The notes under the pieces: model-generated
What the model was told of the DNA's origin: nothing
The model's input: the letters and a program-made list of their open reading frames with translations, nothing else
Databases searched by the model: none
Translations under genes and position numbers: made by a program
From: Anaerolineales bacterium
Lineage (GTDB): Bacteria > Chloroflexota > Anaerolineae > Anaerolineales > Villigracilaceae
Assembly: GCA_016744335.1 (NCBI GenBank)
Contig: JADGEO010000008.1
Location: forward strand, 15,736-79,735
DNA length: 64,000 nt
Reading direction: 5' to 3'
Shown: one piece after another, positions 2,739 to 24,843 of the stretch
How positions within the stretch are numbered: position 1 is the first letter of the stretch
Layout: the number at the start of each line of letters is the position of its first letter

Positions 2739-3977
2739 ATGGAAGAGATTGTCGTAGGAATTGATGTAGGAACAACAAAAATTTGCACCCTTGTAGGGCG
2801 TTTTGATGGAACAGACGTACTGCATATTTTAGGTGTGGGCATTGAGCCAACGACTGGCATTAAAAAAGGCATTATCGTTGACCTTGAAGCGGCCTCACAT
2901 GCCATTGTGCGCTCTGTGGAACGCGCCGAGCAAAGTTCTGGTATAGAGATTGCCTCGGCTATTGTAAGTATTGCAGGGGCGCATGTTTCATCTATTAATA
3001 GTCGTGGTGCGGTTGGTATTAGCGGCGAAATTGTTGATGAATATGACGTTATCAATGTTCTTGAAGCGGCTCGTTCGGTTGCCATTCCTCATAATCGTGA
3101 AGTAATTCATATTGTAAAGCGCGGGTTTAGCATTGACGGGCAAGATGGTATTAACGAGCCAATAGGGATGCACGGTTATAAACTTGAAGTAGAGACGCAT
3201 ATCATCACCGCAGGTGCGGCAACTGTTCAAAACCTTCGTGAATGTGTAGGGGCGGCAGGTGTAGAAGTACAACAATTTGTGCTTAATCCCCTTGCTTCAG
3301 CAGACGCGGTGCTAACCAAAAACGAACGCCTTATGGGCGCGGCAGTTTGCGATATTGGTGGTGGCACAACCGACATGGCAATTTATGTTGATGGGAATGT
3401 GTGGCACACAATGGTTTTGGCAGTAGGTGGCAATCACGTTACTTCAGACATTGCGCACGGTTTACGTTTGCCTGTCTCACAAGCAGAAGAAATCAAATTA
3501 CAACAAGGCTATGCTATCCGTGCCGAAGTTGGCGCAGAAGATTATTTTTCTGTACGTCCCTTTGGTGAAGATAGAGACGTAAATATAAACAAGCAAGAAT
3601 TAGCCCATATTATTGAAGCACGCGTAGAAGAGATTTTTGAACTCGCCCTTCAAGAAATCAAACGCTCTGGTTACGATGGTCTCCTCCCCGCGGGGCTAGT
3701 GCTCACAGGCGGAGTAAGTGCTTTACCCGCCATCCGCGGACTTGCTAGTGATGTGCTCAATATGTCGGTGAGAATAGCAGAGCCTGAAAATATAAGCGGT
3801 ATGGTAGACCAACTCCATTCCCCTGCATATTCAACGGCTGTTGGGCTTCTCCGTTGGGCATTGAGCAGAGAAGATAATTTCGTTAAAGCTAAAAATGGAC
3901 GTAACTCACGAAAGAAAGAAAAAAAAGGAGTGAAGCTTGATTCAGCAAAAAACTTATTTAAGAGATTATTACCCTAA
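2739..3977 (+). CDS. ftsA: cell division protein FtsA
   Basis: Actin-like ATPase motifs are present: VGIDVGTTKICTLVG and CDIGGGTTDMAIY. A GAGG Shine-Dalgarno lies 10 nt upstream, and the gene precedes ftsZ. Confidence 0.95.
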   Translation: MEEIVVGIDVGTTKICTLVGRFDGTDVLHILGVGIEPTTGIKKGIIVDLEAASHAIVRSVERAEQSSGIEIASAIVSIAGAHVSSINSRGAVGISGEIVDEYDVINVLEAARSVAIPHNREVIHIVKRGFSIDGQDGINEPIGMHGYKLEVETHIITAGAATVQNLRECVGAAGVEVQQFVLNPLASADAVLTKNERLMGAAVCDIGGGTTDMAIYVDGNVWHTMVLAVGGNHVTSDIAHGLRLPVSQAEEIKLQQGYAIRAEVGAEDYFSVRPFGEDRDVNINKQELAHIIEARVEEIFELALQEIKRSGYDGLLPAGLVLTGGVSALPAIRGLASDVLNMSVRIAEPENISGMVDQLHSPAYSTAVGLLRWALSREDNFVKAKNGRNSRKKEKKGVKLDSAKNLFKRLLP

Positions 3978-3990
3978 GGGATAATAAGGT

Positions 3991-4018
3991 AAAACGTGAG
4001 CTTTATAAAGCACGTTTT
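3991..4018 (+). repeat. AAAACGTG / CACGTTTT hairpin in the ftsA-ftsZ spacer
   Basis: A perfect 8-bp inverted repeat lies at 3991-3998 / 4011-4018, 14 nt after the ftsA stop. Confidence 0.6.
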
Positions 4019-4104
4019 AAAATTCAACTATCTAATCAACTTATCTGGCAGATAAGGTCGCATCTGAGAAATAATTTTAGGATGCTCAATAAGTAAGGAG
4101 AAAT

Positions 4105-5268
4105 ATGATGGACTCGAAACACAGTATTAATGCAGAAGCATTCGCAAGAATTAAAGTAATTGGTGTAGGTGGCGGCGGTTCGAACGCCGTAGACCGAATG
4201 ATGGCAGAAGGTATCAAAGGCGTTGAATTTATCACGGTCAATACCGATGCCCAAGCTTTAATGCTCTCAAAAGCCCCCATCCGCGTTCGACTTGGCGACA
4301 AACTCACTCGTGGGCTTGGCGCAGGCGGCGACCCTGAAATCGGACGAAAATCGGCAGAAGAATCAGCCGATGATCTTTATGCCGCACTCAAAGGTAGCGA
4401 TATGGTTTTTATCACCGCGGGCATGGGCGGCGGTACAGGCACAGGCGCCGCCGCTGTAGTAGCCCAAATTGCCAAGGAATCGGGCGCACTTACCATTGGT
4501 GTTGTTACTCGCCCCTTCACATTTGAAGGCTCACGCAGAATGCAATCTGCCGAAGATGGTATCAACTCTCTCAAAGAACATGCCGATACATTGATAGCAA
4601 TTCCCAACGATCGCCTTCTTCAACTTGCTGATAAACGTGCCAGCCTACAAGACACCTTCCGCATGGCGGACGAAGTTTTGCATCAGGGTATTCAAGGTAT
4701 TTCAGAACTAATCACCATCCCCGGTTTAATCAATCTCGATTTTGCCGATGTGAAAACAATTATGTCAGAGGGTGGTGCGGCATTAATGGCAGTTGGCGTA
4801 GGCGAAGGCGATGAACGTGCTCGCAAAGCCGCCGAAGCCGCCATCTCTAGCGAACTCCTCGATATTACCATTGACGGTGCACGTGGCGTGCTCTTCAATG
4901 TAACTGGTGGTTCAGATTTAACCCTCTTCGAAGTCAACCAAGCCGCGGCAATCATTCGTGAAACCACTCACCCAGACGTGAATATGATTTTTGGCGCAGT
5001 TGTAGACCCCAATATGGGTGACGAAATTCGCGTCACCGTTATTGCCACTGGTTTTGAGCGCACAGGCGTACCACGTCGTATTTTGCGCCCCAGCCGCCAT
5101 AAAGAAAATAAGAAAGAAAATGTGCATTTCACTCACCCCGTAGAAGAAAGAATTAGTGTTAGTGTTGGCGCAGAACCTATACTCACTTCAACCCAGGTCA
5201 CAGAAAGAAAACCAAGCTATAACGACAACGATCTCGATATTCCAACCTTTTTGCGTAACCGACGTTAG
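4105..5268 (+). CDS. ftsZ: cell division GTPase FtsZ
   Basis: The tubulin signature [13 protein letters not shown] is present, along with [24 protein letters not shown] and the C-terminal DLDIPTFLR peptide. An AAGGAG SD lies upstream. Confidence 0.97.
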
Positions 5269-9600: not shown

Positions 9601-10629
9601 TTATAAGAGTTTCCCCTGTTGCTCTTCTACGAGATACTCAAACCCCAAATGCTCATAGGCCAAGCGGGTGGCGATGCGACCTTGCGGGGTGCGGTCTAAG
9701 AAACCGAGTTGGAGCAAATAGGGCTCAACCACATCCATAATCGTGTCTGGTTCCTCGCTGATGGATGCGCCGATAGTGTTTAGACCAACGGGACCTCCAC
9801 GATATTTTTCGATGATGGCTTTCAATACGCGCCTGTCCATATCGTCTAAGCCGAGGGGGTCAATGGAGAGTAAGCCTAAGGCATCGGATGCGACTGACTT
9901 GGTGATTTTTCCGTCTGCGCGGACTTGGGCGTAATCTCGGACGCGGCGCAATAAACGCAGTGCCACGCGTGGCGTTCCACGTGCGCGGCGTGAGATTTCT
10001 TTAATCCCATCTTCATCGTAGGGTACTTTTAGCATTGTAGCGGCGCGAGTAACGATAGCTTGCGTAGAATCTAAATCATAATACTCTAATCTGTACACTG
10101 CGCCAAAGCGTGCGCGTAAGGGCGCGGTGACTAGAGCCAGTCGTGTTGTTGCGCCAACTACCGTAAAACGTGGCAATTTGAGCCGAATAGAACGCGCTGA
10201 AGGTCCTTTCCCCACAATAATATCAAGTGAAAAATCTTCCATTGCGGGGTAGAGCACTTCTTCTACTACACGACCAAGGCGATGAATTTCATCAATAAAT
10301 AAAATATCGCCCGCTCGCAAGTTGGTGAGGATTGCCGCTAAATCTCCCGCTCGCTCAATCGCAGGACCCGATGTGACGCGGATATTCACCTGCATCTCAT
10401 TTGCTAAAATATGGGCAAGCGTGGTTTTGCCTAATCCTGGCGGACCATAAAAAAGAACGTGGTCGAGAGCTTCTTCGCGTTTTCGTGCGGCTTCTATCAG
10501 AATCTCAAGATTTTCTTTGACTTTATGCTGACCAATGAGATCGCCAAGCATTTTTGGGCGTAAGGCGTGGTCTACGTTATCGTCTGGCTTCTTTTCTGGG
10601 GCAAGGGGGCGGTTTTCGGTAGATGTCAT
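9601..10629 (-). CDS. ruvB: Holliday junction branch-migration helicase RuvB
   Basis: The AAA+ Walker A ([11 protein letters not shown]) and Walker B (LFIDEIHRL) motifs are present. The sensor and winged-helix regions are typical of RuvB. Confidence 0.97.
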
Positions 10630-10902: not shown

Positions 10903-10980
10903 GTAAAAAAGTATGATGCGTAGAATCAGTAAGTAATATATGGATGTATTACGCACTTTAATTCTTTTGGAGGTTTTTTT

Positions 10981-11376
10981 ATGCGTCGTTTATTTAGTTT
11001 TCGTACCACCACTGCTGTCCTTTTAGCCTTAATCCTTTCAGCTGTTGTTTATGGTTTTGCTGCAGCAAATACTGTAGACGCAAGTAAAGCTGGCGAAGGT
11101 GAGGGTGCTGTCAGCGGTTATGCCATCACGGACATCCACTATACCCTAGACGTGTCTGGCAACCCCGGCACAATCACTAATGTAACCTTCAACACCGATG
11201 TAGCTGTTCCCACTACGGGCACTGTTTATGTTGTTGCCGAAAAACTTACTGCTCCTGCTGGCCAAGTTGCGTCAATTCCTTGTACCATGACTGTTCTTAG
11301 CGTATCATGTGACTTTGCTCCTGGTGCTCTCACTGTTCCCTACATTGAAAATTTACGTGTCGTAGCCGCTCAATAA
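10981..11376 (+). CDS. small secreted beta-rich protein, candidate substrate of the adjacent SipW-type peptidase
   Basis: A strong GGAGG SD precedes the start. The N-terminal signal-like segment ends in G-F-A-A-A-N-T-V. The mature part is Thr/Val/Gly-rich. A strong terminator follows directly. Confidence 0.7.
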   Translation: MRRLFSFRTTTAVLLALILSAVVYGFAAANTVDASKAGEGEGAVSGYAITDIHYTLDVSGNPGTITNVTFNTDVAVPTTGTVYVVAEKLTAPAGQVASIPCTMTVLSVSCDFAPGALTVPYIENLRVVAAQ

Positions 11377-11400
11377 TATCAGAACGGCACTAGACTCAAA

Positions 11401-11436
11401 AAGGCACGAGCGGATTTCGCTTCGTGCCTTTTTTTA
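11401..11436 (+). terminator. intrinsic terminator after the 131-aa gene
   Basis: The stem is AAGGCACGAGCG (11401-11412) / CGC(T)TCGTGCCTT (11418-11430) with one bulged T, followed by a T-run. Confidence 0.8.
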
Positions 11437-11444
11437 AAACAGAA

Positions 11445-13691
11445 ATGCAAAAAAATAGAAGTTGGCGTAAAATTTTGCTCTCAGCTGCCCTCCTTGTGAT
11501 TACAATCACGCTATGGGCTCTTTTTGCGCCGCTCCAATTTGGGGGAAATGTGGCTTATGTCATCGTTGCAGGCGATAGTATGTCTCCCAAGTATATGCTG
11601 GGAGATTTGGTTGTTATTCGCAACCAAGAAAATTATAAAATTGGTGATTCTGTCACCTATCAACATCCAGAAATAGACTATGTTTTCCATCGGATTGTTG
11701 AAGTAGATCCTGAAGGTCGATTTATTCTTCAAGGGGATCATAATGCCTGGGAAGATTCTTATCATCCAAGCGAGGAAGAGATTGTAGGCAAGTTGTGGTG
11801 GCATATTCCTAAGCTCGGTAATACCTTAGAAAGCTTGCGTTCTCCGTGGGGATTTGCTATTCTTACATTGGTATTTGGGTTTTTATTATTCACAATTGTA
11901 GTGCCACCTGATAAAAAACGTGGCCGCCGCAAAGAACGCGGGAAAGGCAATTTTATGTCTGGTTCTTATCAAAAAACAGGGGAAAATCTTTTTATCTTAG
12001 CTGTGCTTGCTCTGGGAGCATTATTTTTAGGCTTAGCGGCATTTCGGCACCCCGTGCTCAATGAAATTCATGCACCGCTTGCCTATGAGCAGCAGGCTGT
12101 TTTTCATTATACAGCCAATGTTCCCTCTGGAATTTATGATTCAGATAGGATACAGCCAGGGGAACCAATTTTTCGTCTTTTAAACGGTTCTTTTTCTATT
12201 GGGCTGAATTATCTGTTTATCTCGGTGCATCCAGCAGAGCTAGAGGGTACATATAGATTACTTGCGCGGGTTAGCGATGGGTCTGGTTGGAAGCGGACGC
12301 TTGAATTAACGCCTGAAACTGCATTTAGTGGCAATGTCTTCACAGTCTCGGAGACGCTTGAGCTTGATGAAATTCAAGGCTTTATTGATTCCTTGGAAAA
12401 AGAAACAGGCGTAGCACGTAGCCAATACACACTTTCTGTCCTGTCTGAAATTCAGATTGAAGGAAGAGTGAGCGAATTAGCTTTGCAAGATAGCTTTTCC
12501 CCTGAAATCAATTTTGATATTACAAATCTTGAAGTGGTTTTGCGAGATGTGTCAGATCTTAGCCAAGATGCTCTAAGCTCTATTAAGACGAGTGCGCTAA
12601 CTCGTACTTTGTATGAGCAAAATCATTTAAATATATTAGGGTTGAAAATACCTGTTTTACTTGCGCGTTGGATTGCGGCAGGTGTTGGTATTCCAGCAGT
12701 ATTATTTCTAATTTTCTCGCTCGTGCAATTATATACATCTACTCAGCGGAGTGAATTGGAGCGAGTACGGGTATGGTATGGCTCAATGCTTATAGAAGCA
12801 CGAGATATGCAAATTCTTGATTCTCCCAGACAAGTAGAAATTGCAAGTATTGATGATCTGGCAAAATTTGCCGAACAAGATCAACGCTCTATTTTACATT
12901 TGCCTGATGGGAATTCGCACCATTTTTTTGTCCAAACACCAGAGCAACTTTATCATTATCAATTAGAAGAAAACTCGACAGGTATTGGAGTTATCACTGC
13001 TCCTGCTAATAAAGAAAATTGGGTTGCACGTTTTCCATGGAAACACCAACCTTCAAAGTTGCAGCACTCGTATACGCGTGCGCTGGAGGGTTGGGCAAAT
13101 GCGGTAGACATGCGCTTTTACGAAGAAGGACACTCTGAAGAAGTTGCCAAGTTGACCGAAAAATTAGCCATATCTTTAGGGGTGCGTGGATATGCACTCG
13201 AAGAAATTCGTTTGGGAGCTTATTTACATGATATTGGATTGATGAATATACCGGACTCCATTGTACAAAAAAAGAAAAAATTGACAAAAAAAGAATGGGA
13301 TATTATACGTAACCATCCAGAGCAGGCAAAAGCTCATCTTACAGAAACTAATTTACAGTCATCCATTATAGATGTTGTTCATTATCACCATGAACGTTGG
13401 GATGGGAGTGGTTACCCAGAAGGGTTGCGCGGCGAGGAAATCCCTCTGGGCGCACGGATCGTTGCCGTGATTGATGTTTGGGATGCGCTCAAACATCCAC
13501 GCCCTTATCGTGATTCTTGGTCATCTGAAGAAATTTGCCAATACTTTCGTGAACAATCTGGCATTCAGTTTGACCCGCGTGTAACAGAGGCTTTTCTCAA
13601 ACTATTGGTAGAAGAGTTTCCAGAAGAATGTGAAGAGGTAATTACCCTCGAAGCGGAGGTGCAAGATGTTATTAAAGATAAAGAGGGTTAG
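11445..13691 (+). CDS. fusion protein: ER/archaeal (SipW)-type signal peptidase I + polytopic membrane sensor region + cytoplasmic HD-GYP domain
   Basis: S26B-type motifs are present: GDSMSP (Ser), FHRIVEV (His), LQGDHN. Four predicted TM segments have a positive-inside loop (DKKRGRRKERGK). The C-terminal HD-GYP signature is HDIGLMNIP...HYHHERWDGSGYPEG. The ORF-track start (GTG 11424) lies inside the terminator stem, so ATG 11445 is preferred. Confidence 0.8.
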   Translation: MQKNRSWRKILLSAALLVITITLWALFAPLQFGGNVAYVIVAGDSMSPKYMLGDLVVIRNQENYKIGDSVTYQHPEIDYVFHRIVEVDPEGRFILQGDHNAWEDSYHPSEEEIVGKLWWHIPKLGNTLESLRSPWGFAILTLVFGFLLFTIVVPPDKKRGRRKERGKGNFMSGSYQKTGENLFILAVLALGALFLGLAAFRHPVLNEIHAPLAYEQQAVFHYTANVPSGIYDSDRIQPGEPIFRLLNGSFSIGLNYLFISVHPAELEGTYRLLARVSDGSGWKRTLELTPETAFSGNVFTVSETLELDEIQGFIDSLEKETGVARSQYTLSVLSEIQIEGRVSELALQDSFSPEINFDITNLEVVLRDVSDLSQDALSSIKTSALTRTLYEQNHLNILGLKIPVLLARWIAAGVGIPAVLFLIFSLVQLYTSTQRSELERVRVWYGSMLIEARDMQILDSPRQVEIASIDDLAKFAEQDQRSILHLPDGNSHHFFVQTPEQLYHYQLEENSTGIGVITAPANKENWVARFPWKHQPSKLQHSYTRALEGWANAVDMRFYEEGHSEEVAKLTEKLAISLGVRGYALEEIRLGAYLHDIGLMNIPDSIVQKKKKLTKKEWDIIRNHPEQAKAHLTETNLQSSIIDVVHYHHERWDGSGYPEGLRGEEIPLGARIVAVIDVWDALKHPRPYRDSWSSEEICQYFREQSGIQFDPRVTEAFLKLLVEEFPEECEEVITLEAEVQDVIKDKEG

Positions 13692-14151
13692 ATGGCAAGT
13701 TTTGGTTTTGCTCGTTTTGTTTTTTTCAGTCATCTTTGGCATTATAGTAGGCTCAGCAACAGCAAATAGCGTATCTACAAGTTATGCAAGTGAAAGTAGT
13801 CACACTCTTACTGCAAATCAACTAAAACCAGCCGAATGCAACGGTATTAACATAAGCAATATCGTTAATTTAAGCCAAGGAGAAGTCCCCACATCAGGCA
13901 ACGATCTCATTCTAGGAACAGCTAATCGCGATATTGTGGATGGTGGCGATGGGGATGACTGCATTGTTGGTGGGGGTGCGAATGATAAAGGTAATATCGG
14001 TTCCATAAAAGCTGGGCTTTCAGGTGGCGATGGAAATGATGTCATCTTGGGTGGGGCTGGCAATGACCGTCTTATTGGTGGTGCGGGGACAGATACCTGC
14101 CATGGTGGTGCTGGTAATGACCAGATGACCTGTGAAATAGAATATCCCTAA
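13666..14151 (+). CDS. secreted/anchored protein with hemolysin-type (RTX-like) Ca-binding GGxGxD repeats
   Basis: A GGAGG SD lies 8 nt upstream. The N-terminal hydrophobic segment ends in G-S-A-T-A-N-S-V. The repeats are GGDGDDCIVGGGAND...GGDGNDVILGGAGNDRLIGGAGTDTCHGGAGND. The gene overlaps the upstream gene by 26 nt. Confidence 0.7.
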   Translation: MLLKIKRVRWQVLVLLVLFFSVIFGIIVGSATANSVSTSYASESSHTLTANQLKPAECNGINISNIVNLSQGEVPTSGNDLILGTANRDIVDGGDGDDCIVGGGANDKGNIGSIKAGLSGGDGNDVILGGAGNDRLIGGAGTDTCHGGAGNDQMTCEIEYP

Positions 14152-14167
14152 AAATCAGAATAAACCA

Positions 14168-14198
14168 AAGAGCGCGTGTTGTTTTTACGCGCTTTTTG
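14168..14198 (+). terminator. intrinsic terminator after the RTX-repeat gene (the hairpin is usable on both strands)
   Basis: The stem is AGCGCGT (14171-14177) / ACGCGCT (14187-14193), followed by TTTT. Confidence 0.65.
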
Positions 14199-14245
14199 AT
14201 TCTCAAAACCTGTATCAATATAGATAAGTCCACATTATGGGAAAG

Positions 14246-14335: not shown

Positions 14336-14962
14336 ATGTCTAATATATTTCCATCCCAACATCCCCTTGTCGCTCATAAATTAACCCGTTTGCGCGATAA
14401 AAATACCCAACCCAAAAAATTTAGAGAGTTAACACGTGAAATTGCCGCATTACTCACTTACGAAGCTACTGCCGATTTAGAGATTACCCCGCGCAATGTT
14501 GAAACCCCGCTCACTAAAACAAGTGGTTTTGAACTTAAAGAGAATATAGGTCTTGTGCCCATTTTGCGAGCAGGATTGGGGATGGTAGAAGGCGTGTGGG
14601 GATTAATGCCCTCAGCCGAAGTTTGGCATATTGGATTGTATAGGGATGAGGAGACTTTGCAACCGGTAGAGTATTATAATAAATTGCCCGTTGCGCCTAC
14701 CGTTTCAGTTTGTCTCGTGCTTGATCCAATGCTTGCTACCGGCGGTTCCGCTGTCGCTACAGTAGACGTGGTGAAACGCTGGGGCGTAGACCGCATCAAA
14801 TTTATTGCCATGATTGCCTCCCCCGAAGGCATTGCGGCAATGCAAGAAGCGCACCCCGATGTGCCCATTCACCTTGCGAAAATTGACGAGAAACTAAATG
14901 AGATCGGCTATATTCTCCCCGGTCTTGGTGACGCGGGTGATCGGCAATTTGGGACGGCATAG
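14336..14962 (+). CDS. upp: uracil phosphoribosyltransferase
   Basis: Full-length Upp similarity: [23 protein letters not shown], the PRPP loop [13 protein letters not shown], and [12 protein letters not shown]. Confidence 0.95.
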
Positions 14963-15060
14963 AAGATTTTAGATTATGAGGGTGTGTAGATAGATTTATC
15001 TCGTTCTTCTCATGCAATACGACAAAAATGTTGTATTGCGAATGGAAAAAGGATAATAAA

Positions 15061-16278
15061 ATGAGTGCCCATATTCTTGTTGTAGACGATAATGACATCA
15101 ATTTGAAGGTTGCAAGCAAAGTTTTAGAAAAAGAGGGGTATAAGGTATCTACTGCCTTAAATGGTAAAGATGCCTTGGTACAGGCAAATAAAACGCCACC
15201 CGATTTGGCAATTTTAGATGTAATGATGCCCGATATGGATGGCTATGAACTTTGTGAAAAAATACGAAATACGCCAAAAATAGCCCATATCCCTGTGATT
15301 ATGTTAACGGCATTATCAAGAGTAGATGATCGCCTGAAAGCCTTTGAAGCAGGCGCAGATGATTTTCTTACAAAGCCGTTTAACGTGGCAGAACTACGCG
15401 CGCGTGTAAAGGTTTTATTGAGGTACCTTGATACCCATGATGAAAACGAGACAGATTATCATGCTTATAAAATAGCCGTGTTCTCTTTGCGTGGCGGCAT
15501 AGGTGTTTCAACATTGGCGAGTAATCTTGCCGTAGGGTTAACACAACTTTGGGATGAAGAAAGCCTTCTCATTGACTTGGCTTTGGTAAATGGTCAGAGC
15601 GCATTAATGCTCGATTTATCTCTTCGTAATACTTTAGGTGATTTGGCTGAAATCCCAGTAGATGAAATAGACGTAGGACTACTTGAGCAAATTACACTTC
15701 AACATCCTGGTGGCACTCGTGTGCTTGCCGCACCACGAAAAGCCATAGAAGCTGATTTGGTTACAGAAGAAAAAGTTAAAAAAATAATAAGCCTACTCGA
15801 AGCGCACTATCCTTATTTTGTTTTTGACCTTCCGCATGATTTTAACGCAACCACTATTGCCGCCCTCGATTCTGCCGACAAAATTTTACTTATGCTTGCC
15901 CCCGAAATGGCATCTATTCGTTCTGCGGGGATGGCATTAAGTGTTTTTAATGATCTTGCATACCCCAAAGAAAAAATAGATCTTGTATTAAATTGGAACT
16001 TTCAAAGCCAGGGATTACCGCGAGACGAAATAGAAGCCGCACTTAATAAAAAAATATCTATAGTTATTCCTTATGCTTCGGGCACTATTGTCTCGGCTAT
16101 TACAAAGGGAAAGCCGCCTGTGCTAGATGAAGAAGAAACACCCCTTAAAGCACTATTAGAAGATTTAGCCTATTATTGGAGTGAAGCAGATCAAAAGAAA
16201 ATAAAACCCGATTCGCCAACAGAAAGTTGGATGCGTGTAGCTAAACGGATACGTAAACGTGTAAAAAAGAACGCGTAG
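15061..16278 (+). CDS. response-regulator receiver fused to a TadZ/CpaE-like (MinD/ParA-fold) domain with a degenerate Walker A
   Basis: The REC domain is canonical (VVDDND, LDVMMPDMDG, MLTAL, KPF). The ParA-like domain starts at IAVFSLRGGIGVSTLASNLA, where RGGIGVS replaces KGGxGKT. ATG 15061 has an AGGA SD, and the ORF-track start 15028 is less likely. Confidence 0.8.
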   Translation: MSAHILVVDDNDINLKVASKVLEKEGYKVSTALNGKDALVQANKTPPDLAILDVMMPDMDGYELCEKIRNTPKIAHIPVIMLTALSRVDDRLKAFEAGADDFLTKPFNVAELRARVKVLLRYLDTHDENETDYHAYKIAVFSLRGGIGVSTLASNLAVGLTQLWDEESLLIDLALVNGQSALMLDLSLRNTLGDLAEIPVDEIDVGLLEQITLQHPGGTRVLAAPRKAIEADLVTEEKVKKIISLLEAHYPYFVFDLPHDFNATTIAALDSADKILLMLAPEMASIRSAGMALSVFNDLAYPKEKIDLVLNWNFQSQGLPRDEIEAALNKKISIVIPYASGTIVSAITKGKPPVLDEEETPLKALLEDLAYYWSEADQKKIKPDSPTESWMRVAKRIRKRVKKNA

Positions 16279-16475: not shown

Positions 16476-16913
16476 TTAGTCATCTGGCGTGGCAGTGGCA
16501 GTGAACTTGATTTCGCCTATATTCGTGTTTTCGCCAGCTATAACATCTACGGCAAATTCGTATCCAGCTGTTTCGTTGGCGATAACCAACGAGCGTGTGC
16601 CTGCAGGGACGCTTTCAATAAGGAAACTTCCATCTTCATTGGTTGTAGTTTCTAGGTCTGTGCCGACAATAAAAACATAGCCATTGAAGGGCTGTTTTTT
16701 ATCATTTAGTGCTATACCACTTATGGCGCCTTTGCCTACAAGAATGTTGGCGGCATTGCTTTGGGCAAAAGAAACCCCAGCAAAGAGAATGACAACGCCT
16801 AATAAACCAAAGATAATAGTGTGTAGGCGTTTTTTCTTTGCGCTTGGGTTAGAAAGTTTATGGGGAATTCCTTCTTCAAATTCTTCGAGTGAGGGTGAGT
16901 TTTCAAATGACAT
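16476..16913 (-). CDS. membrane-anchored protein with a carboxypeptidase-regulatory-like (CarboxypepD_reg) beta-sandwich domain
   Basis: It has one TM segment (IIFGLLGVVILFAGVSF) followed by ISGIALNDKKQPFNGYVFIVGTDLETTTNEDGSFLIESVPAGT. The start lies 2 nt after the stop of the pilin-like gene. Confidence 0.6.
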   Translation of the reverse strand: MSFENSPSLEEFEEGIPHKLSNPSAKKKRLHTIIFGLLGVVILFAGVSFAQSNAANILVGKGAISGIALNDKKQPFNGYVFIVGTDLETTTNEDGSFLIESVPAGTRSLVIANETAGYEFAVDVIAGENTNIGEIKFTATATPDD

Positions 16914-16915
16914 TA

Positions 16916-17638
16916 TTATTCTCCTGTATTATTAACAAGGCTATCGATAGAGAACTCTCCAAAGCAGACTTCTGTGCTATCCCATGAGCGGAGTCCAACG
17001 CCGCCTTCATCGTAGGTGCTATCTTGCCCGACAAGAACTTTTTCACCATCAAGATAGACGGTAAAGGTATCGCCTTCTACATCTAACTTCATGTCGTGTG
17101 GTTCTCCGCTCCAGTCGTATCCTGGCATTTTTTTTACTGCAAAGGGAGGTAGTTCGCGCCCGTTAACCCACTTTCTCATGATAATTGAACCGCCGCCCCA
17201 GCCGGGGTCGTATTGAACGATATAGCCATTAGTGCGCCCATCCATTTCTGTTCCACGGAAAAATACGCCGTAGCCGTTCCCTTTATCTAATTGTGCATCG
17301 CTTAGGTTTACGGTGTAGTCTTTGTTGTTTGTCATATCTTGTGAGCAGTTATTGAGGTTTTTGGCACTACGAGATGTGCATAGCTTCCCGTCTTTGGTCT
17401 CCCATCCGCCGTATTGGGATGTCCAATTATCGTATGTTGAAAAATCATCTTGGCAGTAGACCCCAGCACAAGCATCTTCGTTGCCTATGCTTTTGGCTAT
17501 AGAGCAGTAGGTGTCGTAAAGGCTGAACCCCATTGCATTTAGTGCAAGCATTATCGACATTGCAACGAGTACGGCAATAAGCGCGTATTCTACAAGCCCT
17601 TGCCCTTTGGTATTATTTCTTAAGATATTCTTTTTCAT
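16916..17638 (-). CDS. Flp/Fap-type prepilin N-terminus fused to a DUF1080/LamG-like jelly-roll domain
   Basis: The N-terminus MKKNILRNNTKGQG|LVEYALIAVLVAMSIM matches the class-III (Flp) prepilin pattern G/xxxEY. The C-terminal ~190 aa carries DUF1080-like motifs: GGWETKDGKL, GYGVFFRG, GYIVQYD, DTFTVYLDGEKV, GGVGLRSW. Confidence 0.65.
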   Translation of the reverse strand: MKKNILRNNTKGQGLVEYALIAVLVAMSIMLALNAMGFSLYDTYCSIAKSIGNEDACAGVYCQDDFSTYDNWTSQYGGWETKDGKLCTSRSAKNLNNCSQDMTNNKDYTVNLSDAQLDKGNGYGVFFRGTEMDGRTNGYIVQYDPGWGGGSIIMRKWVNGRELPPFAVKKMPGYDWSGEPHDMKLDVEGDTFTVYLDGEKVLVGQDSTYDEGGVGLRSWDSTEVCFGEFSIDSLVNNTGE

Positions 17639-17664: not shown

Positions 17665-18879
17665 TTATTTTTTTCGTCTTGCCATAAATCGTTTATAAAC
17701 TTTTTTCCAGGTATCACTAGGAGAAATAGGTTTGTTTTTTTTATGTTTTCTTGAGCTAAGTAGAAAAGCAAAGTCTTCAAATAATGCTGTAAGTGTACTT
17801 TCGGGGTGTTCTAGGGTAAGAGGTTTTCCGTAATTAATTGCTCGAACAAATTTATCGGCAATATGAGGAATCGTGATAGTAATTGGTACCGAGAGGGCGT
17901 CTTCTATTTTCTTTACCGTTAAATCAGAGCGTGGAATAACGGCATTGAGGATGAGCTTTACTTTTTCTGGAGGATAGCCTAATTTCCTGTAGGTGTCTAG
18001 CGCGGCAGAAGCGGCTCGGATAGATGCCATTTCTGGAGCGACTAGTAATAAGATTATATCGGCTTCATCGAGTACGCTGAGTGTCATTGGGCTAAAGTCG
18101 TGAGGTAGGTCACAGATGATATAACTGAATTCCTTACGCAGTATGTTTAGGATGCCGTTTAGGGTTTCTTTTTCTAGCGGAGAGGCTTCAGAGGGTAGGG
18201 TTGGCGCAGGGATGAAATCAAGCCCGCTTTCGTGTTGACTGATGGTTGAATTGACCGCTTCTATATCTATGCTTTCTGCATCAAAGCGGGCTAGGTCTGT
18301 CCAGGTTCGTTTGAGGGGGGCATTTAGCATGAGGGCAACTTGTCCGGCTGTCATTGCCATATCGAGCAAGATGGTTGGTTTTTCCCAGAGTCGATATATG
18401 GATAAAGAAAGGTTAATTGCGAGGCTAGAGCATCCTGTGCCGCCGCGTAAGCTATGCACTGCAATTAGGCGTGCTTTTTCTTTTTCGTTAACGCGAGTAG
18501 ATTTTACACGTTTATTGCGCCGCAATAACACCTCTATGCGGGCTATCAATTCTTTAGGTTCAAATGGTTTTGATAGGTAATCGTCTGCGCCGGCTTCGAA
18601 GGCTTCTAGTTTTGCTTGCATATCAGTTTGTGCTGTGAGAATTAATATAGGGGTCTGCGCAAAACTGTTTTCTCTGCGAAGCGTGGTTGTAACTTCATAG
18701 CCATTCATATTGGGCATAATGACATCAGTAATGATTAAATCAGGTTTTAGCCTATGAGCTTTTTGGATTCCTTCACTTCCACTAGAAGCGGTTTCTATGC
18801 GATAGTTTTTTTCCTTAAGCGCATGAATAATCATATTATGATAAATTTCTTCATCGTCTATTACTAAAATTTTAATCAT
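17665..18879 (-). CDS. response-regulator receiver fused to a TadZ/CpaE-like domain with a degenerate Walker A (paralogue of 15061..16278)
   Basis: The REC domain is canonical (VIDDEE, TDVIMPNMNG, ILTAQ, KPF). The ParA-like domain starts at IAVHSLRGGTGCSSLAINLS. I placed the start at MIKILVIDD (ATG 18879, AAAGG SD) rather than the ORF-track start 18927. Confidence 0.8.
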   Translation of the reverse strand: MIKILVIDDEEIYHNMIIHALKEKNYRIETASSGSEGIQKAHRLKPDLIITDVIMPNMNGYEVTTTLRRENSFAQTPILILTAQTDMQAKLEAFEAGADDYLSKPFEPKELIARIEVLLRRNKRVKSTRVNEKEKARLIAVHSLRGGTGCSSLAINLSLSIYRLWEKPTILLDMAMTAGQVALMLNAPLKRTWTDLARFDAESIDIEAVNSTISQHESGLDFIPAPTLPSEASPLEKETLNGILNILRKEFSYIICDLPHDFSPMTLSVLDEADIILLLVAPEMASIRAASAALDTYRKLGYPPEKVKLILNAVIPRSDLTVKKIEDALSVPITITIPHIADKFVRAINYGKPLTLEHPESTLTALFEDFAFLLSSRKHKKNKPISPSDTWKKVYKRFMARRKK

Positions 18880-18958
18880 CGATTTACCTTTGTTTTGGAT
18901 AAGTATGAGATTTTCAGTGTTTGGCATATTGCTTTTAGAGCGTTATATGGTGTGGCAT

Positions 18959-21682
18959 TTAGAGATTTTCTGATAATTCTTCACTTACTTTTTTGGATTC
19001 TTCTTCAATGTCGTTTATTAAATTATCTACTTGGTTTAGATTGCCTTTTTTACCTTCTGCCTCTAACGTTGTACTTAACTCGGCTAGTTTATTGGCAGAG
19101 AATGTTAACGACATGCCTTTGAGGTTATGAGCAACACGATATATTTTTTCTGTATCTGAATGTGCAATGGCTTCTTTTATCTCTGCAATATGTTCAGGGA
19201 GTTTTTTTAGAAAATCTTCGCACATTTCGTTGAAGAATGCCACATCGTTGCCAAAGCGTGGAAGGGCGTCTTCTATATTTACCGCAGGGCTGTTTTTTGT
19301 GGGCACTCCAGTTTGGGGTTGCGCGGCGGGGGCGGGTTTTTTATTTACTAAAGGTGAGGTTGGCACATCTGTTTTCTGCATGTCTTTACTCCATCTTTGA
19401 ATAATAGCGAATAGGGAACGTTTGTCTATAGGCTTAGAGAGATAATCGTCCATACCTGCTTCAAGGCAACGTTCGCGATCTCCCTTCATGGCGTGGGCGG
19501 TCATAGCTATAATTGGGGTATGTTTTTTCCCTGCTTCCCAAGTGCGAATTTGGCGAGTGGCTTCAAAACCATCTAAGATGGGCATTTGCACATCCATTAG
19601 GATAAGGCTATATTCATTTTTCTTATTTTTTTGAACAGCCTCTTCTCCATTGCCGACAATGTCTATGATATGCCCTTCATTTTCAAGCAATGTTGAGGCA
19701 ACTTTTTGATTTATGGGGTTGTCTTCTGCCAATAAAATATATTGTGTTCTTGTTTTTTCTTCTTTTATAAGATGGCGGGTTACGAGCCTGCCATTGTTGG
19801 GTAAGTTATTTCTTTTTTCGTTAATAACCCTTACCAATGCTGTGAAAAGCATTTTTTGCTTTATGGGTTTTAGCAAGTATCCTGCACACCCTAAATCTTG
19901 AAGCCGTTTTGCATCACCACGTTGTCCCATTGATGTTAGCACCACGACACTTAAGTTTTTCTTTCGAGGGTCGCTGAAAATAGCTCGTGCCGTTTGCTCT
20001 CCATCCATTTCTGGCATTTGCATATCAAGTAAAACTAAATCGTACAAATCTCTTTCTTTTCTGGCAACCTGAAGAGCATCGAGTCCCTCTTGCCCACCTT
20101 CAACGGCATAAGCTCTTGCGCCAAAGCTTGAAACCATTTTCTTTAGGATGATTCGATTCGTCGCGTTATCGTCAATAATAAGGATTTTCAATCCCTGCAG
20201 GTCGGTTACTTTAGTTTTTGTTTCGTTCTTGTTTTGGGCTTGTTTACTGAACTCAAGCGTGAAGCTGAAAGTTGATCCTTTTCCATATTCGCTTTCTACG
20301 CTTAAATCTCCACCCATCGCTTCGATGAGGTGTTGTGAAATTGCTAAGCCCAAACCCGTGCCACCAAATTTGCGCGTTGTTGAGCCATCTGCTTGCGTGA
20401 AACGCTCAAAAACAGCATCTAAGCGATCAGATTTAATTCCAATGCCTGTGTCTTGCACAGAAAAGCGAATTTTCACATCATTTTCACTTTCTTCTATCGC
20501 TTTTATGTAGATAATCACTTCGCCTTTTTCGGTAAATTTGATGGCATTGCCCACAAGGTTAATCAAAACCTGTCTCAATCTGCCGGGGTCACCAAGTAGG
20601 TGTGTGGGTAATTGAGGCGGGATAAAAGAAATCAACTCTAAGCCTTTTTCTTCGGCGCGACTTGCAATAGTAGATGCGACCCCCTCAACCGTATTGCGTA
20701 AATTGAAGTCTATGATTTCAATGTCTAGTTTTTTTGCTTCAATTTTTGAGTAATCAAGAATGTCATTAAGTAGTGTTAATAAAGCCTCAGCACTCTGTTG
20801 CGCTATAGTGAGATATTCTTTTTGCTCATCACTTAAATCTGTATCTAGTGTGATATCAATCATGCCGATTACACCATTCATCGGGGTACGAATTTCGTGG
20901 CTCATATTGGCTAGAAATTCGCTTTTAGAACGATTTGCTTCCTCAGCAGATTGGCGGGCTTCAACTAAAGTAGATACGTCGTGGTATATAGCCAGAGAGC
21001 CAGCTCTCTTTTCTTCCACAAATACGGGAACACCAAATAACTCTACATTTATAATAGAGCCATCTTTTCGTCTTCGTTTTGCTATTTTATGGACGCGTTG
21101 TTGGGCTACTTCTTGTGTGAGTGTTTCAGCTTCTTTTTTTGTTTCATCGGTAGTAATTAGTTCATCTATATCTTTTCCTTTAACGCCAGCACAGGTGTAG
21201 CCATATAAGTCTTCAAAGGCGGCATTACAGTGTGTTATTTTTTGTTCGTTATCCAATAAGACAACGGCGGTGGGACTGTTTTCAATTAAGGCTTGAAAGT
21301 ATTTTTTTTGGCGTAAAATTTCTTTTTCAGCTTTTTCGCGTTCTCTATTTTCGTTTTTTAAATTCTGGTTACTTTTTTCTAAATCGGCTGTTCTCTCAGC
21401 GATTTTATCTTCTAAATAATGGTTTGTGTTCTCTAGTTTTTCTTCACGTCTTCCTATAGCTCTAAATAGGAGTGCCATAATAATTGGCGCAGTGTCTACA
21501 ACCCAAAGCACGGGGTTGGCAGATTGCAATGCCCAAAAATTAGTCGGGCGTATTGATGTTTTGCTTAAGGTCGCTTCAAGAGTTGTGCCTACTACAGGAA
21601 AAAACAACCCCAAAAATAACCCAAATAAGGTATATCGTTTTGTAGTGGGAATGCTTTCAATCCAAACCGTTATTTTATTCAT
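18959..21682 (-). CDS. hybrid sensor histidine kinase (TM - PAS - HisKA - HATPase - REC - REC - HPt)
   Basis: The H-box is SHEIRTPMNG and the G-boxes are DTGIGI and GGTGLGLAIS. Two receiver domains are present (IIDDNATN..LLDMQMPEMDG and LAEDNPINQ..LMDVQMPILDG). The C-terminal HPt has AHNLKGMS. Confidence 0.9.
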   Translation of the reverse strand: MNKITVWIESIPTTKRYTLFGLFLGLFFPVVGTTLEATLSKTSIRPTNFWALQSANPVLWVVDTAPIIMALLFRAIGRREEKLENTNHYLEDKIAERTADLEKSNQNLKNENREREKAEKEILRQKKYFQALIENSPTAVVLLDNEQKITHCNAAFEDLYGYTCAGVKGKDIDELITTDETKKEAETLTQEVAQQRVHKIAKRRRKDGSIINVELFGVPVFVEEKRAGSLAIYHDVSTLVEARQSAEEANRSKSEFLANMSHEIRTPMNGVIGMIDITLDTDLSDEQKEYLTIAQQSAEALLTLLNDILDYSKIEAKKLDIEIIDFNLRNTVEGVASTIASRAEEKGLELISFIPPQLPTHLLGDPGRLRQVLINLVGNAIKFTEKGEVIIYIKAIEESENDVKIRFSVQDTGIGIKSDRLDAVFERFTQADGSTTRKFGGTGLGLAISQHLIEAMGGDLSVESEYGKGSTFSFTLEFSKQAQNKNETKTKVTDLQGLKILIIDDNATNRIILKKMVSSFGARAYAVEGGQEGLDALQVARKERDLYDLVLLDMQMPEMDGEQTARAIFSDPRKKNLSVVVLTSMGQRGDAKRLQDLGCAGYLLKPIKQKMLFTALVRVINEKRNNLPNNGRLVTRHLIKEEKTRTQYILLAEDNPINQKVASTLLENEGHIIDIVGNGEEAVQKNKKNEYSLILMDVQMPILDGFEATRQIRTWEAGKKHTPIIAMTAHAMKGDRERCLEAGMDDYLSKPIDKRSLFAIIQRWSKDMQKTDVPTSPLVNKKPAPAAQPQTGVPTKNSPAVNIEDALPRFGNDVAFFNEMCEDFLKKLPEHIAEIKEAIAHSDTEKIYRVAHNLKGMSLTFSANKLAELSTTLEAEGKKGNLNQVDNLINDIEEESKKVSEELSENL

Positions 21683-21752
21683 AATAGCTCCACAGAAAAA
21701 AGGAGTTTCTTTTTATTAGACCTCTTGCAAAAGTCTGTTTTTTCTACGCTCC

Positions 21753-21805
21753 CTGCGCCGTCCTCGGCGCAGGCTTCTCTAAAACACGCCGCCGAGGACG
21801 GCGGC
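21753..21805 (-). terminator. pair of GC-rich, mutually complementary hairpins between the RR-HD-GYP gene and the hybrid kinase
   Basis: The first hairpin is CTGCGCCG-TCCT-CGGCGCAG (21753-21772) and the second is GCCGCCG-AGGA-CGGCGGC (21788-21805). On the minus strand the second is followed by GTGTTTT. The two hairpins share a 14-nt complementary core. Confidence 0.4.
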
Positions 21806-21832
21806 TAGAGCACTTATGCAAGATGTCTATTA

Positions 21833-22819
21833 TTAATTATTTTCAACAAATGCTAAAAAGTAGCTAAGAATATCTGGGTCAAAATGTTTCCCAGTTTCTT
21901 CTTTGATATAAGCCAGTGTTTTTTCTCTCGTCCAAGCCTTACGGTAAGGACGGTCTGAAAGTAACGCGTCCCAGACATCTGCAAGGGCGAATATTCGTGC
22001 CGATAGAGGGATTTCTGTGCCTTTTAGCCCACGTGGATAGCCTGAACCATCCCATTTTTCGTGATGGCAATAAGGAATATCGATGGACGGGCGCAAATAG
22101 GTTATATCTTTAAGCATATTATAGGCATGTTGGGGATGTTCTTGCATTAGATGCCATTCTTCGGGTGTTAGTTTTCCGTTTTTAAGTAAAATGGTATCTG
22201 ATATGCCTATTTTGCCTATATCGTGTAATAACGCTCCCCATTTTATATAGCGCAAATCTTTTCCTTGTAAACCCATTTTTTCTGCCAGTGCCACTGATGT
22301 CTTTGCTACGCGTTGATTATGCTCTTCAGTTTCTTGATCTCTTAAGGTAACAGCTTTAGACCAGCCTAAAATGGTGGCATCATAGGCATTGAGCAATTCG
22401 ACATGCGCTTGTTCAAGATTGGTGCGTTCATCATGTAATTTTTGGTAGCGGTTTAGGCGCATAATGCCAGCTATGCGAGCGCGTAATTCATGCCTATCGA
22501 AGGGTTTAGAGAGAAAATCATCTGCACCAGCTTCTAGCGCTAGTAGCATAGATTTATGATCGTTTAATGCAGTGAGAATAATGATGGGTATTTCAGCGAT
22601 ATCTATATTTTGGCGAATACGCTGGCAAACTTGGTAGCCAGTAATATCGGGCATCATTACGTCTAGCAAAATCAAATCGGGTTTGAGTGTTTCGGCTTTT
22701 TCTAGTGCCTGATGACCATTTTTGGCTGTTTTTAATTGATAGCCTTCTGATTCTAGAACCGATACAAGTGTTTGGCGACCTGCGTATTCATCATCTACAA
22801 TTAAAACTGTTTTTTGCAT
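21833..22819 (-). CDS. response regulator with HD-GYP output domain (RpfG family)
   Basis: The REC domain has IVDDEYA, LLDVMMPDITG and KPF. The HD-GYP domain has LLHDIGKIG...YCHHEKWDGSGYPRGL. Confidence 0.9.
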   Translation of the reverse strand: MQKTVLIVDDEYAGRQTLVSVLESEGYQLKTAKNGHQALEKAETLKPDLILLDVMMPDITGYQVCQRIRQNIDIAEIPIIILTALNDHKSMLLALEAGADDFLSKPFDRHELRARIAGIMRLNRYQKLHDERTNLEQAHVELLNAYDATILGWSKAVTLRDQETEEHNQRVAKTSVALAEKMGLQGKDLRYIKWGALLHDIGKIGISDTILLKNGKLTPEEWHLMQEHPQHAYNMLKDITYLRPSIDIPYCHHEKWDGSGYPRGLKGTEIPLSARIFALADVWDALLSDRPYRKAWTREKTLAYIKEETGKHFDPDILSYFLAFVENN

Positions 22820-22836
22820 TGAGTGCTCCTTGTTTA

Positions 22837-22857
22837 AGACTTAAGACTTTAGACTAA
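22837..22857 (-). repeat. heptad-periodic GTCT x3 array directly upstream of the RR-HD-GYP Shine-Dalgarno
   Basis: On the plus strand, AGAC occurs at 22837, 22844 and 22851. The 11-mer AGACTTAAGAC is identical to 2650-2660. In the gene sense it reads GTCTAAAGTCTTAAGTCTTAAACAAGGAG...ATG. Confidence 0.75.
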
Positions 22858-22909
22858 AATCAACAGCTTAGGGCTGATGACCGATATCTGATATCTTAAG
22901 GCTAAATAA

Positions 22910-24618: not shown

Positions 24619-24657
24619 AGTTCTTGTTCCTTTTTGGAAGATAGCTCCTTGCATTAT

Positions 24658-24819: not shown

Positions 24820-24843
24820 TAAATTTGTACGGTGATTTTTGTG

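Follow-up and report, generated by a model that had tools for sequence, protein, structure and literature searches.

A three-gene cassette of Chloroflexota with a signal peptidase-DUF5305 protein between two exported proteins, and its fusion to an HD-GYP domain in an Anaerolineales bacterium

RESULTS

Organisation of the A-B-C locus and its conservation

Positions 10981-14151 of the 64,000-nucleotide (nt) stretch of Anaerolineales DNA analysed here (the window) contain three open reading frames (ORFs), all reading in the same direction, which are referred to below as genes A, B and C (Table 1). Genes A and C specify small exported proteins; the long gene between them specifies a membrane protein in which a signal peptidase, a DUF5305 module and a cytoplasmic HD-GYP domain form a single chain. 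A first-pass annotation, made by a model from the letters alone, had read B as a SipW-type signal peptidase fused to a membrane HD-GYP protein, and A and C as its dedicated substrates. The locus was compared with the best 80 species-level genome loci bearing peptidase-DUF5305 genes, to which all counts of loci given below refer. Scored by tblastn, an A-like gene was found directly upstream of B in 77 of these loci, and a C-like gene directly downstream in 78; the A-B-C cassette is widespread in Chloroflexota. When the ORFs of the flanks were clustered all against all, no further conserved family of the cassette emerged, every other family being present in 15 of the 80 loci or fewer. In several loci (L083, at 3682-4080 and 4539-4934, and also L077, L056, L007, L044, L065, L074 and L076) the peptidase gene was preceded by two or three A paralogues in tandem, an arrangement that, by analogy, resembles sets of major and minor subunits.

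The strong Shine-Dalgarno sequence earlier assigned to gene A was found 7 nt upstream of its start (Table 1), and the terminator proposed for it at 11401-11436 could be resolved into a GC-rich stem-loop of 26 nt (11403-11428) followed by a run of T residues (11429-11435). The stability of this hairpin (free energy -21.9 kcal/mol; z = -4.1) was not reached by any of 200 shuffled sequences. A hairpin with a T-run separates A from B in 24 of the 77 loci with an upstream A-like gene, among them L001-L006, L012 and L033; it is absent from L007, the remaining locus with an HD-GYP domain. It is proposed to act as an attenuator that sets the expression of A well above that of B and C. The ORF of gene B is open over 11424-13691 from a GTG codon (755 amino acids, aa), and the start conserved among homologues is the ATG at 11445 (MQKNRSW...), which corrects the length given previously, 749 aa, to 748 aa. 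Gene B has no obvious Shine-Dalgarno sequence. The start of gene C overlaps the end of gene B by 26 nt, an overlap that in related loci is often of 4 nt.

Table 1. Features of the A-B-C locus, in window coordinates (TM, transmembrane; HMM, hidden Markov model)
Feature	Coordinates	Strand	Basis
Shine-Dalgarno sequence GGAGG, 7 nt 5' of the gene A start	10969..10973	+	Direct reading
Gene A, 131-aa exported protein with predicted Sec-type signal peptide	10981..11376	+	ORF, AlphaFold, synteny
Gene A cleavage-region signature, G25-F-A-A-A-N-T-V32	11053..11076	+	Family position profile
Terminator-like hairpin GGCACGAGCGGATTTCGCTTCGTGCC followed by T7, between A and B	11403..11435	+	Folding, pattern scan
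Gene B, 748-aa fusion with four predicted TM segments	11445..13691	+	Pfam, NCBIfam, homologue alignment, AlphaFold
Predicted extracytoplasmic S26B (endoplasmic reticulum/archaeal/SipW-type) peptidase domain, residues ~30-125	11532..11819	+	TIGR02228, alignment, Foldseek
DUF5305 all-beta ectodomain (predicted), residues ~205-403, from TM3 to TM4	12057..12653	+	PF17231, AlphaFold
Cytoplasmic alpha/beta domain of the DUF5305 module (predicted), residues ~437-508	12753..12968	+	AlphaFold, preprint description
Cytoplasmic HD-GYP domain, residues ~535-725	13047..13619	+	HD_5, alignment, Foldseek
Gene C, 161-aa exported RTX-repeat protein	13666..14151	+	ORF, HMM, synteny
Gene C cleavage-region signature, G29-S-A-T-A-N-S-V36	13750..13773	+	Family position profile
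Terminator-like hairpin and T-run 3' of gene C, probable operon end	14174..14202	+	Pattern scan only

Gene B joins a signal peptidase to DUF5305 and an HD-GYP domain

From its N-terminus, B is composed of an S26 signal peptidase I, DUF5305, a cytoplasmic alpha/beta domain and HD-GYP. The N-terminal part matched the NCBIfam model TIGR02228 (sigpep_I_arch) with 67.3 bits (cutoff 51.85) and the Pfam model Peptidase_S24 with 34.4 bits (cutoff 23.3); the equivalog model of Bacillus SipW, NF046067, was not matched (44, for a cutoff of 190). The boxes on which the S26 assignment had originally been based (GDSMSP, FHRIV and GDHN) were recovered when residues 1-160 were aligned with human SEC11A (7p2p), in which GDSMSP corresponds to SGSMEP, FHRIV to VHRVL, and GDHNAWED to GDNNAVDD. 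The catalytic residues are S45, H82 and D98/D104; S45, H82, R83, G97, D98, N100 and D104 were invariant in all homologues possessing the N-terminus. Judged from these residues, the peptidase of B is a Ser-His-Asp signal peptidase I of the endoplasmic reticulum (ER)/archaeal type. The same Ser-His-Asp chemistry is found in SipW, the catalytic residues of which are Ser47, His87 and Asp106 (PMC8767453). Foldseek searches with the N-terminal domain retrieved LexA, lambda cI, SipA and signal-peptidase folds. SipA/LepA of Streptococcus pyogenes (4n31) resembles the peptidase of B in having the signal-peptidase fold and in being dedicated to pilus assembly, but it has no catalytic residues and plays a chaperone-like part in sortase-mediated assembly, whereas B keeps Ser, His and Asp.

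The ~200-aa outside domain previously taken for a sensor proved to be part of DUF5305 (PF17231; 53.5 bits for a cutoff of 29, with the model spanning residues 283-506), a TafG-like peptidase accessory. In the Tafi system, the signal peptidase I TafD has been found experimentally to be required for processing of the pilin TafA, and TafG is a DUF5305 protein (PMC11821415). More generally, in Tafi and AbpX/TasA-type loci the dedicated signal peptidases have DUF5305/TafG as their partner (PMC11821415, PMC12337348, bioRxiv 10.64898/2026.01.04.697558). The architecture of DUF5305 in B (an outside beta domain, two transmembrane (TM) segments and a cytoplasmic alpha/beta domain) corresponds to that described in the preprint on AbpX, and is here fused to the peptidase.

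At the C-terminus, the HD-GYP domain earlier recognised by its canonical motifs matched HD_5 (PF13487) with 124.4 bits (cutoff 27.2; E = 5e-36). An alignment with PmGH (4MCW) showed that the full set of metal ligands (H, HD, H, HH and D) and GYP are conserved in B, the motifs being GHSEEV, LHDIGL, NHPEQ, HHERWDGSGYP and DVWDAL; the third-metal Glu of PmGH was not alignable. The best match among PDB sequences was V-cGAP3 (5Z7C), which is specific for cyclic GMP-AMP (cGAMP), and Foldseek returned 4mcw (PmGH) at 4e-12, along with 4r8z, 9rbz and 3tm8.

Hydropathy analysis placed hydrophobic segments at residues 10-28, 135-153, 182-200 and 409-427, and K/R-rich stretches were found at the N-terminus and in the loop 154-181. 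The AlphaFold model of B, with a predicted local distance difference test (pLDDT) score of 77.6, contains helices at residues 5-27, 134-152, 173-201 and 404-435, an all-beta region at 205-403 (pLDDT ~90), an alpha/beta region at 437-508 and a helical HD-GYP domain at 535-725. Hydropathy, charge and modelled helices agree with the topology put forward earlier, in which the peptidase and the DUF5305 ectodomain are predicted to lie outside the membrane, and the alpha/beta and HD-GYP domains inside. Residues 511-535, which link these last two domains, were poorly conserved in the alignment and were modelled by AlphaFold with low confidence.

Occurrence of the fusion

The full tri-domain protein was found in ~40 clusters (formed at 90% identity) with 36-81% identity to B, the named ones all being Chloroflexi/Anaerolineae metagenome bins. 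An exhaustive search of a library of 1.84 billion representatives at 50% identity rendered eight full-length matches; one of these, P0130, matched in two stretches, and its HD_5 domain was confirmed by Pfam. A second search for homologues with an N-terminal profile returned a set identical to the first and added nothing. In the databases the relatives are labelled 'signal peptidase I', 'HD domain-containing protein' or 'hypothetical'.

Separate peptidase and HD-GYP genes might in principle have been joined by an assembly or frameshift error, and a sublineage of relatives (P0028, P0029 and P0031) does have DUF5305-HD-GYP genes without the peptidase part. However, the tri-domain ORF is uninterrupted in ~40 independent clusters, derived from varied sources and assemblers, and the fusion is present in 9 species-level genomes as well as in the 50%-identity library. 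These independent full-length homologues exclude an artefact, and the claim that peptidase and HD-GYP reside in one polypeptide was fully borne out. Genes of the P0031 type are present on at least 24 contigs and have a degenerate HD-GYP domain; in L081 and L082 the DNA upstream of them is non-coding up to the contig end (~200 nt). The contig breaks at this place suggest a repeat or a hypervariable region, possibly A genes.

Residues ~10-510 of B were covered by all of the best 150 representatives and by all of the best 80 loci. The peptidase-DUF5305 part is therefore much more widespread than the full fusion.

A signature shared by A and C in the cleavage region

Both flanking proteins had been noted to share the motif G-x-A-x-A-N-[ST]-V. 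This was confirmed, and extended, by position-specific profiles anchored on the invariant Asn, which were built from 84 A-family and 76 C-family sequences (Table 2). The signature common to the two families, [AG]-hydrophobic-A-A-x-N-[TS]-[VI]-P, stands right after the hydrophobic segment; the consensus is [AG]-[FY]-A-A-[AS]-N-T-V-P-x-[TS]-x-A-G-[DE]-G for A and A-[VFIL]-A-A-[TAS]-N-[TS]-[VI]-P-x-[TS]-R for C. In both families the Asn is invariant and the A-A pair that precedes it by 2-3 residues is nearly so. Since the signature is conserved in both families over ~80 loci, it goes far beyond chance. It differs from that of the SipW-cognate class: neither A nor C matched the SipW-cognate signal-peptide models (TIGR04088, NCBIfam) at E <= 0.1.

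Table 2. Residues found around the invariant Asn in the two families (number of sequences where given)
Position relative to Asn	A family	C family
-5	A/G (82)	A (53), S, G, V
-4	F/Y (81)	V, F, I, L
-3	A (82)	A (63)
-2	A (79)	A (70)
-1	A (52), S (18), T (6), G (3), Q (2), V (2)	T (30), A (20), S (9), E (4), G (4), K (2)
After Asn	T-V-P-x-[TS]-x-A-G-[DE]-G	[TIS]-[VI]-P-x-[TS]-R

Type I signal peptidases require small residues at positions -1 and -3 of the cleavage site. A cut directly before the Asn (A-x-A/N), as the first-pass annotation had it, is disfavoured because T, Q, E or K would then be at position -1 in many members, whereas a cut two residues upstream ([AG]-x-A / A-x-N) fits nearly all members of both families. 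Cleavage thus probably takes place after [AG]-x-A, which would leave A-x-N-T-V-P as the N-terminus of the mature proteins.

Within the window, a signal-like segment is followed by the signature in A, in C and, as one faint look-alike, in the gene at 16476-16913. The latter lies on the minus strand and encodes a 145-aa CarboxypepD_reg-like protein in which a signal-anchor is followed by 'SFAQSN-AANILVGKGAISG', a sequence that faintly matches the A/C signature (A-A-N-hydrophobic ... G-x-G-x-I-S-G).

The relatives of B are called simply 'signal peptidase I' by NCBI, as would be expected if B served the organism as its general housekeeping signal peptidase and its position between A and C were incidental. 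This is very improbable, however, given the near-universal synteny with A and C, a signature that is private to these two families and that in the window is limited to A, C and the look-alike, and the fact that bacterial ER-type peptidases are typically substrate-specific, SipW being an example (PMC8767453). Synteny and shared signature strongly support the proposal that A and C are dedicated substrates, and we infer that B is the peptidase that cleaves them.

The C-terminal domain of B varies among relatives

An HD-GYP domain was present in 9 of the 80 loci and an EAL domain was found at the same position in 11, while ~60 had neither. The EAL domains of the fused proteins scanned gave Pfam E values of 1e-53 to 1e-64. 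Nine long variants (50%-identity representatives of more than 770 aa) were scanned with Pfam: six contained EAL, two an FGE-sulfatase-like domain, and one no recognisable domain. In the two FGE-sulfatase variants (P0200 and P0212) this formylglycine-generating-enzyme-like domain stands in place of the c-di-GMP (cyclic di-GMP) domain, and similarity to B stops near residue 415-424. In a neighbour-joining (NJ) tree built on the N-terminal 520 residues of B-type proteins, the topology of which is not robust, the main HD-GYP group formed one clade with L007 apart from it, and EAL appeared in at least three places. One relative (P0019/L083) is 73% identical to B in its N-terminal part, and has a short TM tail that replaces HD-GYP, with only a faint remnant of the latter. 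The HD-GYP domain is thus a lineage-specific addition that lies outside the conserved core. Four other loci (L018, L026, L029 and L036) encode proteins of 600-636 aa with no c-di-GMP domain, in which a low-complexity tail is followed by a short peptide that all four share, 'EY[VM]I.[TS]GEI[EG]F', possibly a conserved motif for docking in the cytoplasm.

A census of the fused HD-GYP domains showed ~13 of 39 clusters, that of B included, to be canonical. A further 18 clusters are of an HK/QH type, usually with GQP or GHP, in which the first His and the last Asp are missing; 6 clusters are of an HG/RT type, which brings the degenerate total to 24 of ~39. The degenerate domains nevertheless retain the ERWDGSG(Y/Q)P region. 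The fused EAL of L042, the sole one read residue by residue, has EINR for ExTE, DNFATDAAN for DDFGTGYSS, and QGIE for EGVE. As two unrelated domains occupy one position, and many copies lack catalytic residues, binding of c-di-GMP appears to be their common denominator, which argues for c-di-GMP sensing or binding as the shared role of the fused HD-GYP and EAL domains. HD-GYP is not part of the core, more than half of its copies are degenerate, and EAL takes its place elsewhere; the coupling to c-di-GMP turnover suggested earlier is therefore better stated as coupling to c-di-GMP sensing, with or without turnover.

For B itself, a phosphodiesterase tethered at the export site is favoured because its canonical HD-GYP is predicted to be active and the linker is variable. 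The main alternative is that B works as an inside-out receptor, in which the C-terminal domain would sense c-di-GMP and signal via TM4 and DUF5305, switching the peptidase or the release of subunits; this would be the logic of LapD-LapG or DvhD-DvhG in one polypeptide, with hydrolysis in B serving only to reset the switch. More than half of the fused HD-GYPs are without metal ligands and yet keep ERWDGSG(Y/Q)P, the fused EAL of L042 is degenerate in both its catalytic and its loop-6 motifs, and there is a precedent in DvhD of Desulfovibrio, the degenerate HD-GYP of which has been proven to bind c-di-GMP and to control a protease in the periplasm that has an RTX adhesin as its substrate (PMC13090378); the structure of DvhD (9rbz) is among the closest matches of the HD-GYP of B. 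The active site of B is, however, fully canonical, neither a HAMP domain nor an S-helix nor a rigid signalling linker connects it to the membrane (residues 511-535 being variable and of low confidence), and most cassettes do without any c-di-GMP domain. An inside-out sensor is accordingly an unlikely description of B, and, going by the motifs, a likelier one of its degenerate relatives.

Properties of the exported proteins A and C

Mature A is a protein of ~104 aa and isoelectric point (pI) 4.2 with two conserved Cys. An AlphaFold model based on a 49-sequence alignment (pLDDT 80) showed a six-strand beta-sandwich at residues 22-103, preceded by ~20 residues that are strongly conserved yet unstructured in the monomer model. 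None of the 49 proteins (A and 48 homologues) has a name, and no Pfam domain was detected in any. Foldseek comparison of the fold with the PDB yielded nothing at E <= 0.001, the top matches being generic immunoglobulin (Ig)/fibronectin type III (FN3)-like domains, and a search of PDB sequences with the A profile gave nothing below E = 0.7. A TasA-like identity of A was therefore rejected, no relation having been found by Foldseek or PDB profile, nor by Pfam in any of the 49 members.

Mature C (pI 4.05) has four Cys and about six GGxGxD repeats. The protein starts with a signal peptide, which is followed by the shared signature, a conserved LKP..C segment and RTX-type calcium-binding repeats; HemolysinCabind (PF00353) was matched in two stretches (E = 3e-19), and no other family model was matched. 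While RTX proteins are a class associated with the type I secretion system (T1SS), C is predicted to be exported by way of its N-terminal, Sec-type signal peptide, and no T1SS genes are conserved beside the cassette in the clustered flanks of the 80 loci. Direct comparison of A with C revealed similarity in the signal peptide and signature only (E = 0.01), so that in their mature parts the two are not paralogues.

The comparison with the matrix fibre proteins TasA and TapA, drawn in the first-pass annotation, rests on the logic of the operon and not on any detectable similarity between A and TasA; by analogy, A is hypothesised to polymerise. Alternatively, A and C might be small secreted or wall-associated calcium-binding proteins, such as an adhesin pair or envelope-stabilising factors, that require a leader peptidase of their own, the c-di-GMP domain being an unrelated signalling module that uses B as an anchor. 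Such roles would fit with A having no link in fold or sequence to known polymerising subunits, with a cassette of three genes only, near which no chaperone, usher, sortase or anchor gene is conserved in the 80 loci, and with an HD-GYP held on a flexible linker. However, two non-homologous c-di-GMP domains are found at the same position on separate branches of the NJ tree, which would be difficult to account for if the domains had no link in function. Further, the attenuator after A, the tandem A paralogues and a coupled, low-level C resemble the operons of major and minor subunits, and the conserved, unstructured N-terminus of mature A resembles that of self-assembling subunits such as AbpX. 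Non-polymerising roles for A and C are thus possible, but are not the ones we favour.

Neighbouring genes in the window

The cassette is flanked by ruvB (9601-10629, minus strand) on one side and by upp (14336-14962) on the other. A region rich in signalling genes lies downstream, with REC-ParA/CpaE-like ATPases, a protein with a Flp-like N-terminus, hybrid kinases and a REC-HD-GYP protein; clustering of the flank ORFs of the 80 loci showed that these genes are not conserved with the cassette elsewhere. The two REC-ParA/CpaE-like ATPases are encoded at 15028-16278 (plus strand) and 17665-18927 (minus strand). Between them, at 16916-17638 (minus strand), a gene for a 240-aa protein combines a Flp-pilin-like N-terminus with a 3-keto-disaccharide-hydrolase (DUF1080-like) domain; a Flp-type leader on a lectin-like protein is unusual. 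The minus strand of 18959-31603 forms a dense signalling block, which includes a hybrid histidine kinase with PAS, two REC domains and Hpt (18959-21682), an RpfG-like regulator of REC-HD-GYP architecture (21833-22819), a response regulator of the LuxR type (22910-23554), a kinase with REC and HisKA_3 (23554-24711), a hybrid kinase of 1424 aa with REC, PAS and GAF (24844-29118) and a kinase of dCache-HAMP-PAS architecture (29195-31603).

DISCUSSION

The results are best accommodated by a model in which A-B-C is a self-contained cassette for export and maturation, B processing A and C, with the HD-GYP domain most likely acting as a tethered phosphodiesterase; we would give this reading a probability of about 0.6. 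B would be a membrane platform in which a signal peptidase I is fused to a DUF5305 (TafG-like) accessory, both ectodomains facing outwards. A and C would be private Sec substrates of this platform, recognised by the signature that straddles their cleavage site, and B would cut them after [AG]-x-A to give mature proteins starting A-x-N-T-V-P. Owing to its strong Shine-Dalgarno sequence and to the attenuating terminator, A would be produced in surplus and would be the principal structural subunit that is secreted; it is modelled as a small, disulfide-bonded beta-sandwich with a flexible, conserved N-terminal extension. C, translationally coupled to B, would be of low abundance and made in step with it, and could be a calcium-binding RTX beta-roll partner, plausibly a tip, an anchor or a nucleator. 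In the lineage of B, a canonical HD-GYP on a flexible linker would tie the platform to c-di-GMP; most likely it is a phosphodiesterase tethered at the export site, where it might provide a local sink or feedback. In many relatives, a domain that would only bind the nucleotide (a degenerate HD-GYP or an EAL) appears to sit in the same place.

Several observations weigh against this model. No similarity to TasA, AbpA, Tafi or a solved pilin could be detected in A, the N-terminal extension of which is Gly-rich (AGDGxG), whereas a donor strand is typically amphipathic. Most cassettes have no HD-GYP, and a 73%-identical relative has lost it, so that it is dispensable for the core; some of the long variants carry other C-terminal additions (FGE-sulfatase-like in 2 of 9, unrecognised in 1 of 9), and the P0028/P0029/P0031 sublineage has DUF5305-HD-GYP without a peptidase domain. 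Finally, the linker of B at residues 511-535 is variable and predicted to be disordered, which disfavours tight allosteric coupling. A bolder version of the model, in which A and the calcium-binding C would be the major and minor subunits of an as yet unrecognised surface polymer of Chloroflexota, the maturation of which is gated directly by c-di-GMP, is put forward tentatively, as a less likely reading. In that version, binding or hydrolysis of the nucleotide at the HD-GYP (or EAL) domain would switch signal-peptide cleavage or the release of subunits.

The cassette can be compared with several known systems. Haloarchaeal Tafi loci (PMC11821415, PMC12337348) likewise have an ER/archaeal-type peptidase and a DUF5305 partner beside small beta-sandwich subunits, which in the present case are presumed to be processed by that peptidase. 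Here, in contrast, peptidase and DUF5305 are one polypeptide with an additional cytoplasmic HD-GYP, the signals of A and C are of the Sec type whereas Tafi substrates use Tat, A and C have no detectable homology to TafA or TafE, and there are three genes instead of seven. In the tapA-sipW-tasA operon of B. subtilis (PMC8767453) a Ser-His-Asp peptidase is also encoded beside or between two exported proteins, one major and one accessory, roles that A and C would fill in our model. SipW, too, extends into the cytoplasm at its C-terminus, with a tail that plays a regulatory part of its own in biofilm formation (PMC8767453). Unlike B, however, SipW is a protein of ~190 aa without DUF5305 or any nucleotide-signalling domain; further, A is not TasA-like and the cleavage signature is a different one.

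AbpX/TasA-superfamily loci come close to the cassette, since they include a peptidase-DUF5305 fusion in Chloroflexota, that of Anaerolinea thermophila (E8MZY1) among others, and c-di-GMP enzymes, HD-GYP proteins included, are encoded by neighbouring genes, while in B the domain is fused to the peptidase (bioRxiv 10.64898/2026.01.04.697558). AbpX subunits are acidic and depend on calcium, and in the monomer their N-terminal extension is unstructured (bioRxiv 10.64898/2026.01.04.697558). A differs from them in being a 104-aa, six-strand sandwich with no PDB match to TasA/AbpX folds, and in its signature, A-A-x-N-T-V-P, as opposed to the aromatic-plus-acidic donor strand of AbpX. The LapD-LapG system of Pseudomonas and DvhD-DvhG (PMC3032545, PMC13090378) share with B the combination of a TM protein bearing a cytoplasmic c-di-GMP domain (a degenerate EAL in LapD) and an extracytoplasmic protease. 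LapG and DvhG, which are governed by these TM proteins, cut a calcium-binding RTX protein of the surface in its N-terminal region, and c-di-GMP decides whether this protein is displayed at the surface (PMC3032545, PMC13090378). In those systems, however, receptor and protease are separate, and a BTLCP cysteine protease removes an adhesin that has already been exported, whereas B has a signal peptidase in the same chain, and its HD-GYP is canonical where the domains of LapD and DvhD are degenerate.

With regard to novelty, the pairing of peptidase and DUF5305, and their fusion, are already known. Such fusions have been noted in Actinoplanes, Tepidiforma and Anaerolinea thermophila (PMC11821415; bioRxiv 10.64898/2026.01.04.697558), bacterial ones being listed in the Tafi paper itself (PMC11821415). 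A search of the literature for signal peptidases joined to HD-GYP or EAL brought none to light, which is not proof of absence, and neither the A and C families nor the signature that they share were found described; the C-terminal HD-GYP/EAL fusion and the two families thus appear to be new.

In archaea as well as in bacteria, dedicated ER-type peptidases with DUF5305 partners are emerging as the machinery by which biofilm fibres are matured (TasA, Tafi, AbpX). The fusion found in B adds a concrete, testable case of control by a second messenger exerted at the level of secretion or maturation rather than of transcription, and, if maturation were indeed gated by c-di-GMP, this would be the first signal peptidase regulated by a second messenger. 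The two unannotated families, with their sharp N-terminal signature, could serve to identify what such peptidases cleave throughout Chloroflexota; little is known about the biology of the cell surface in this phylum. Altogether, the three-gene module suggests that in these bacteria the maturation of a cell-surface structure may be wired to a second messenger.

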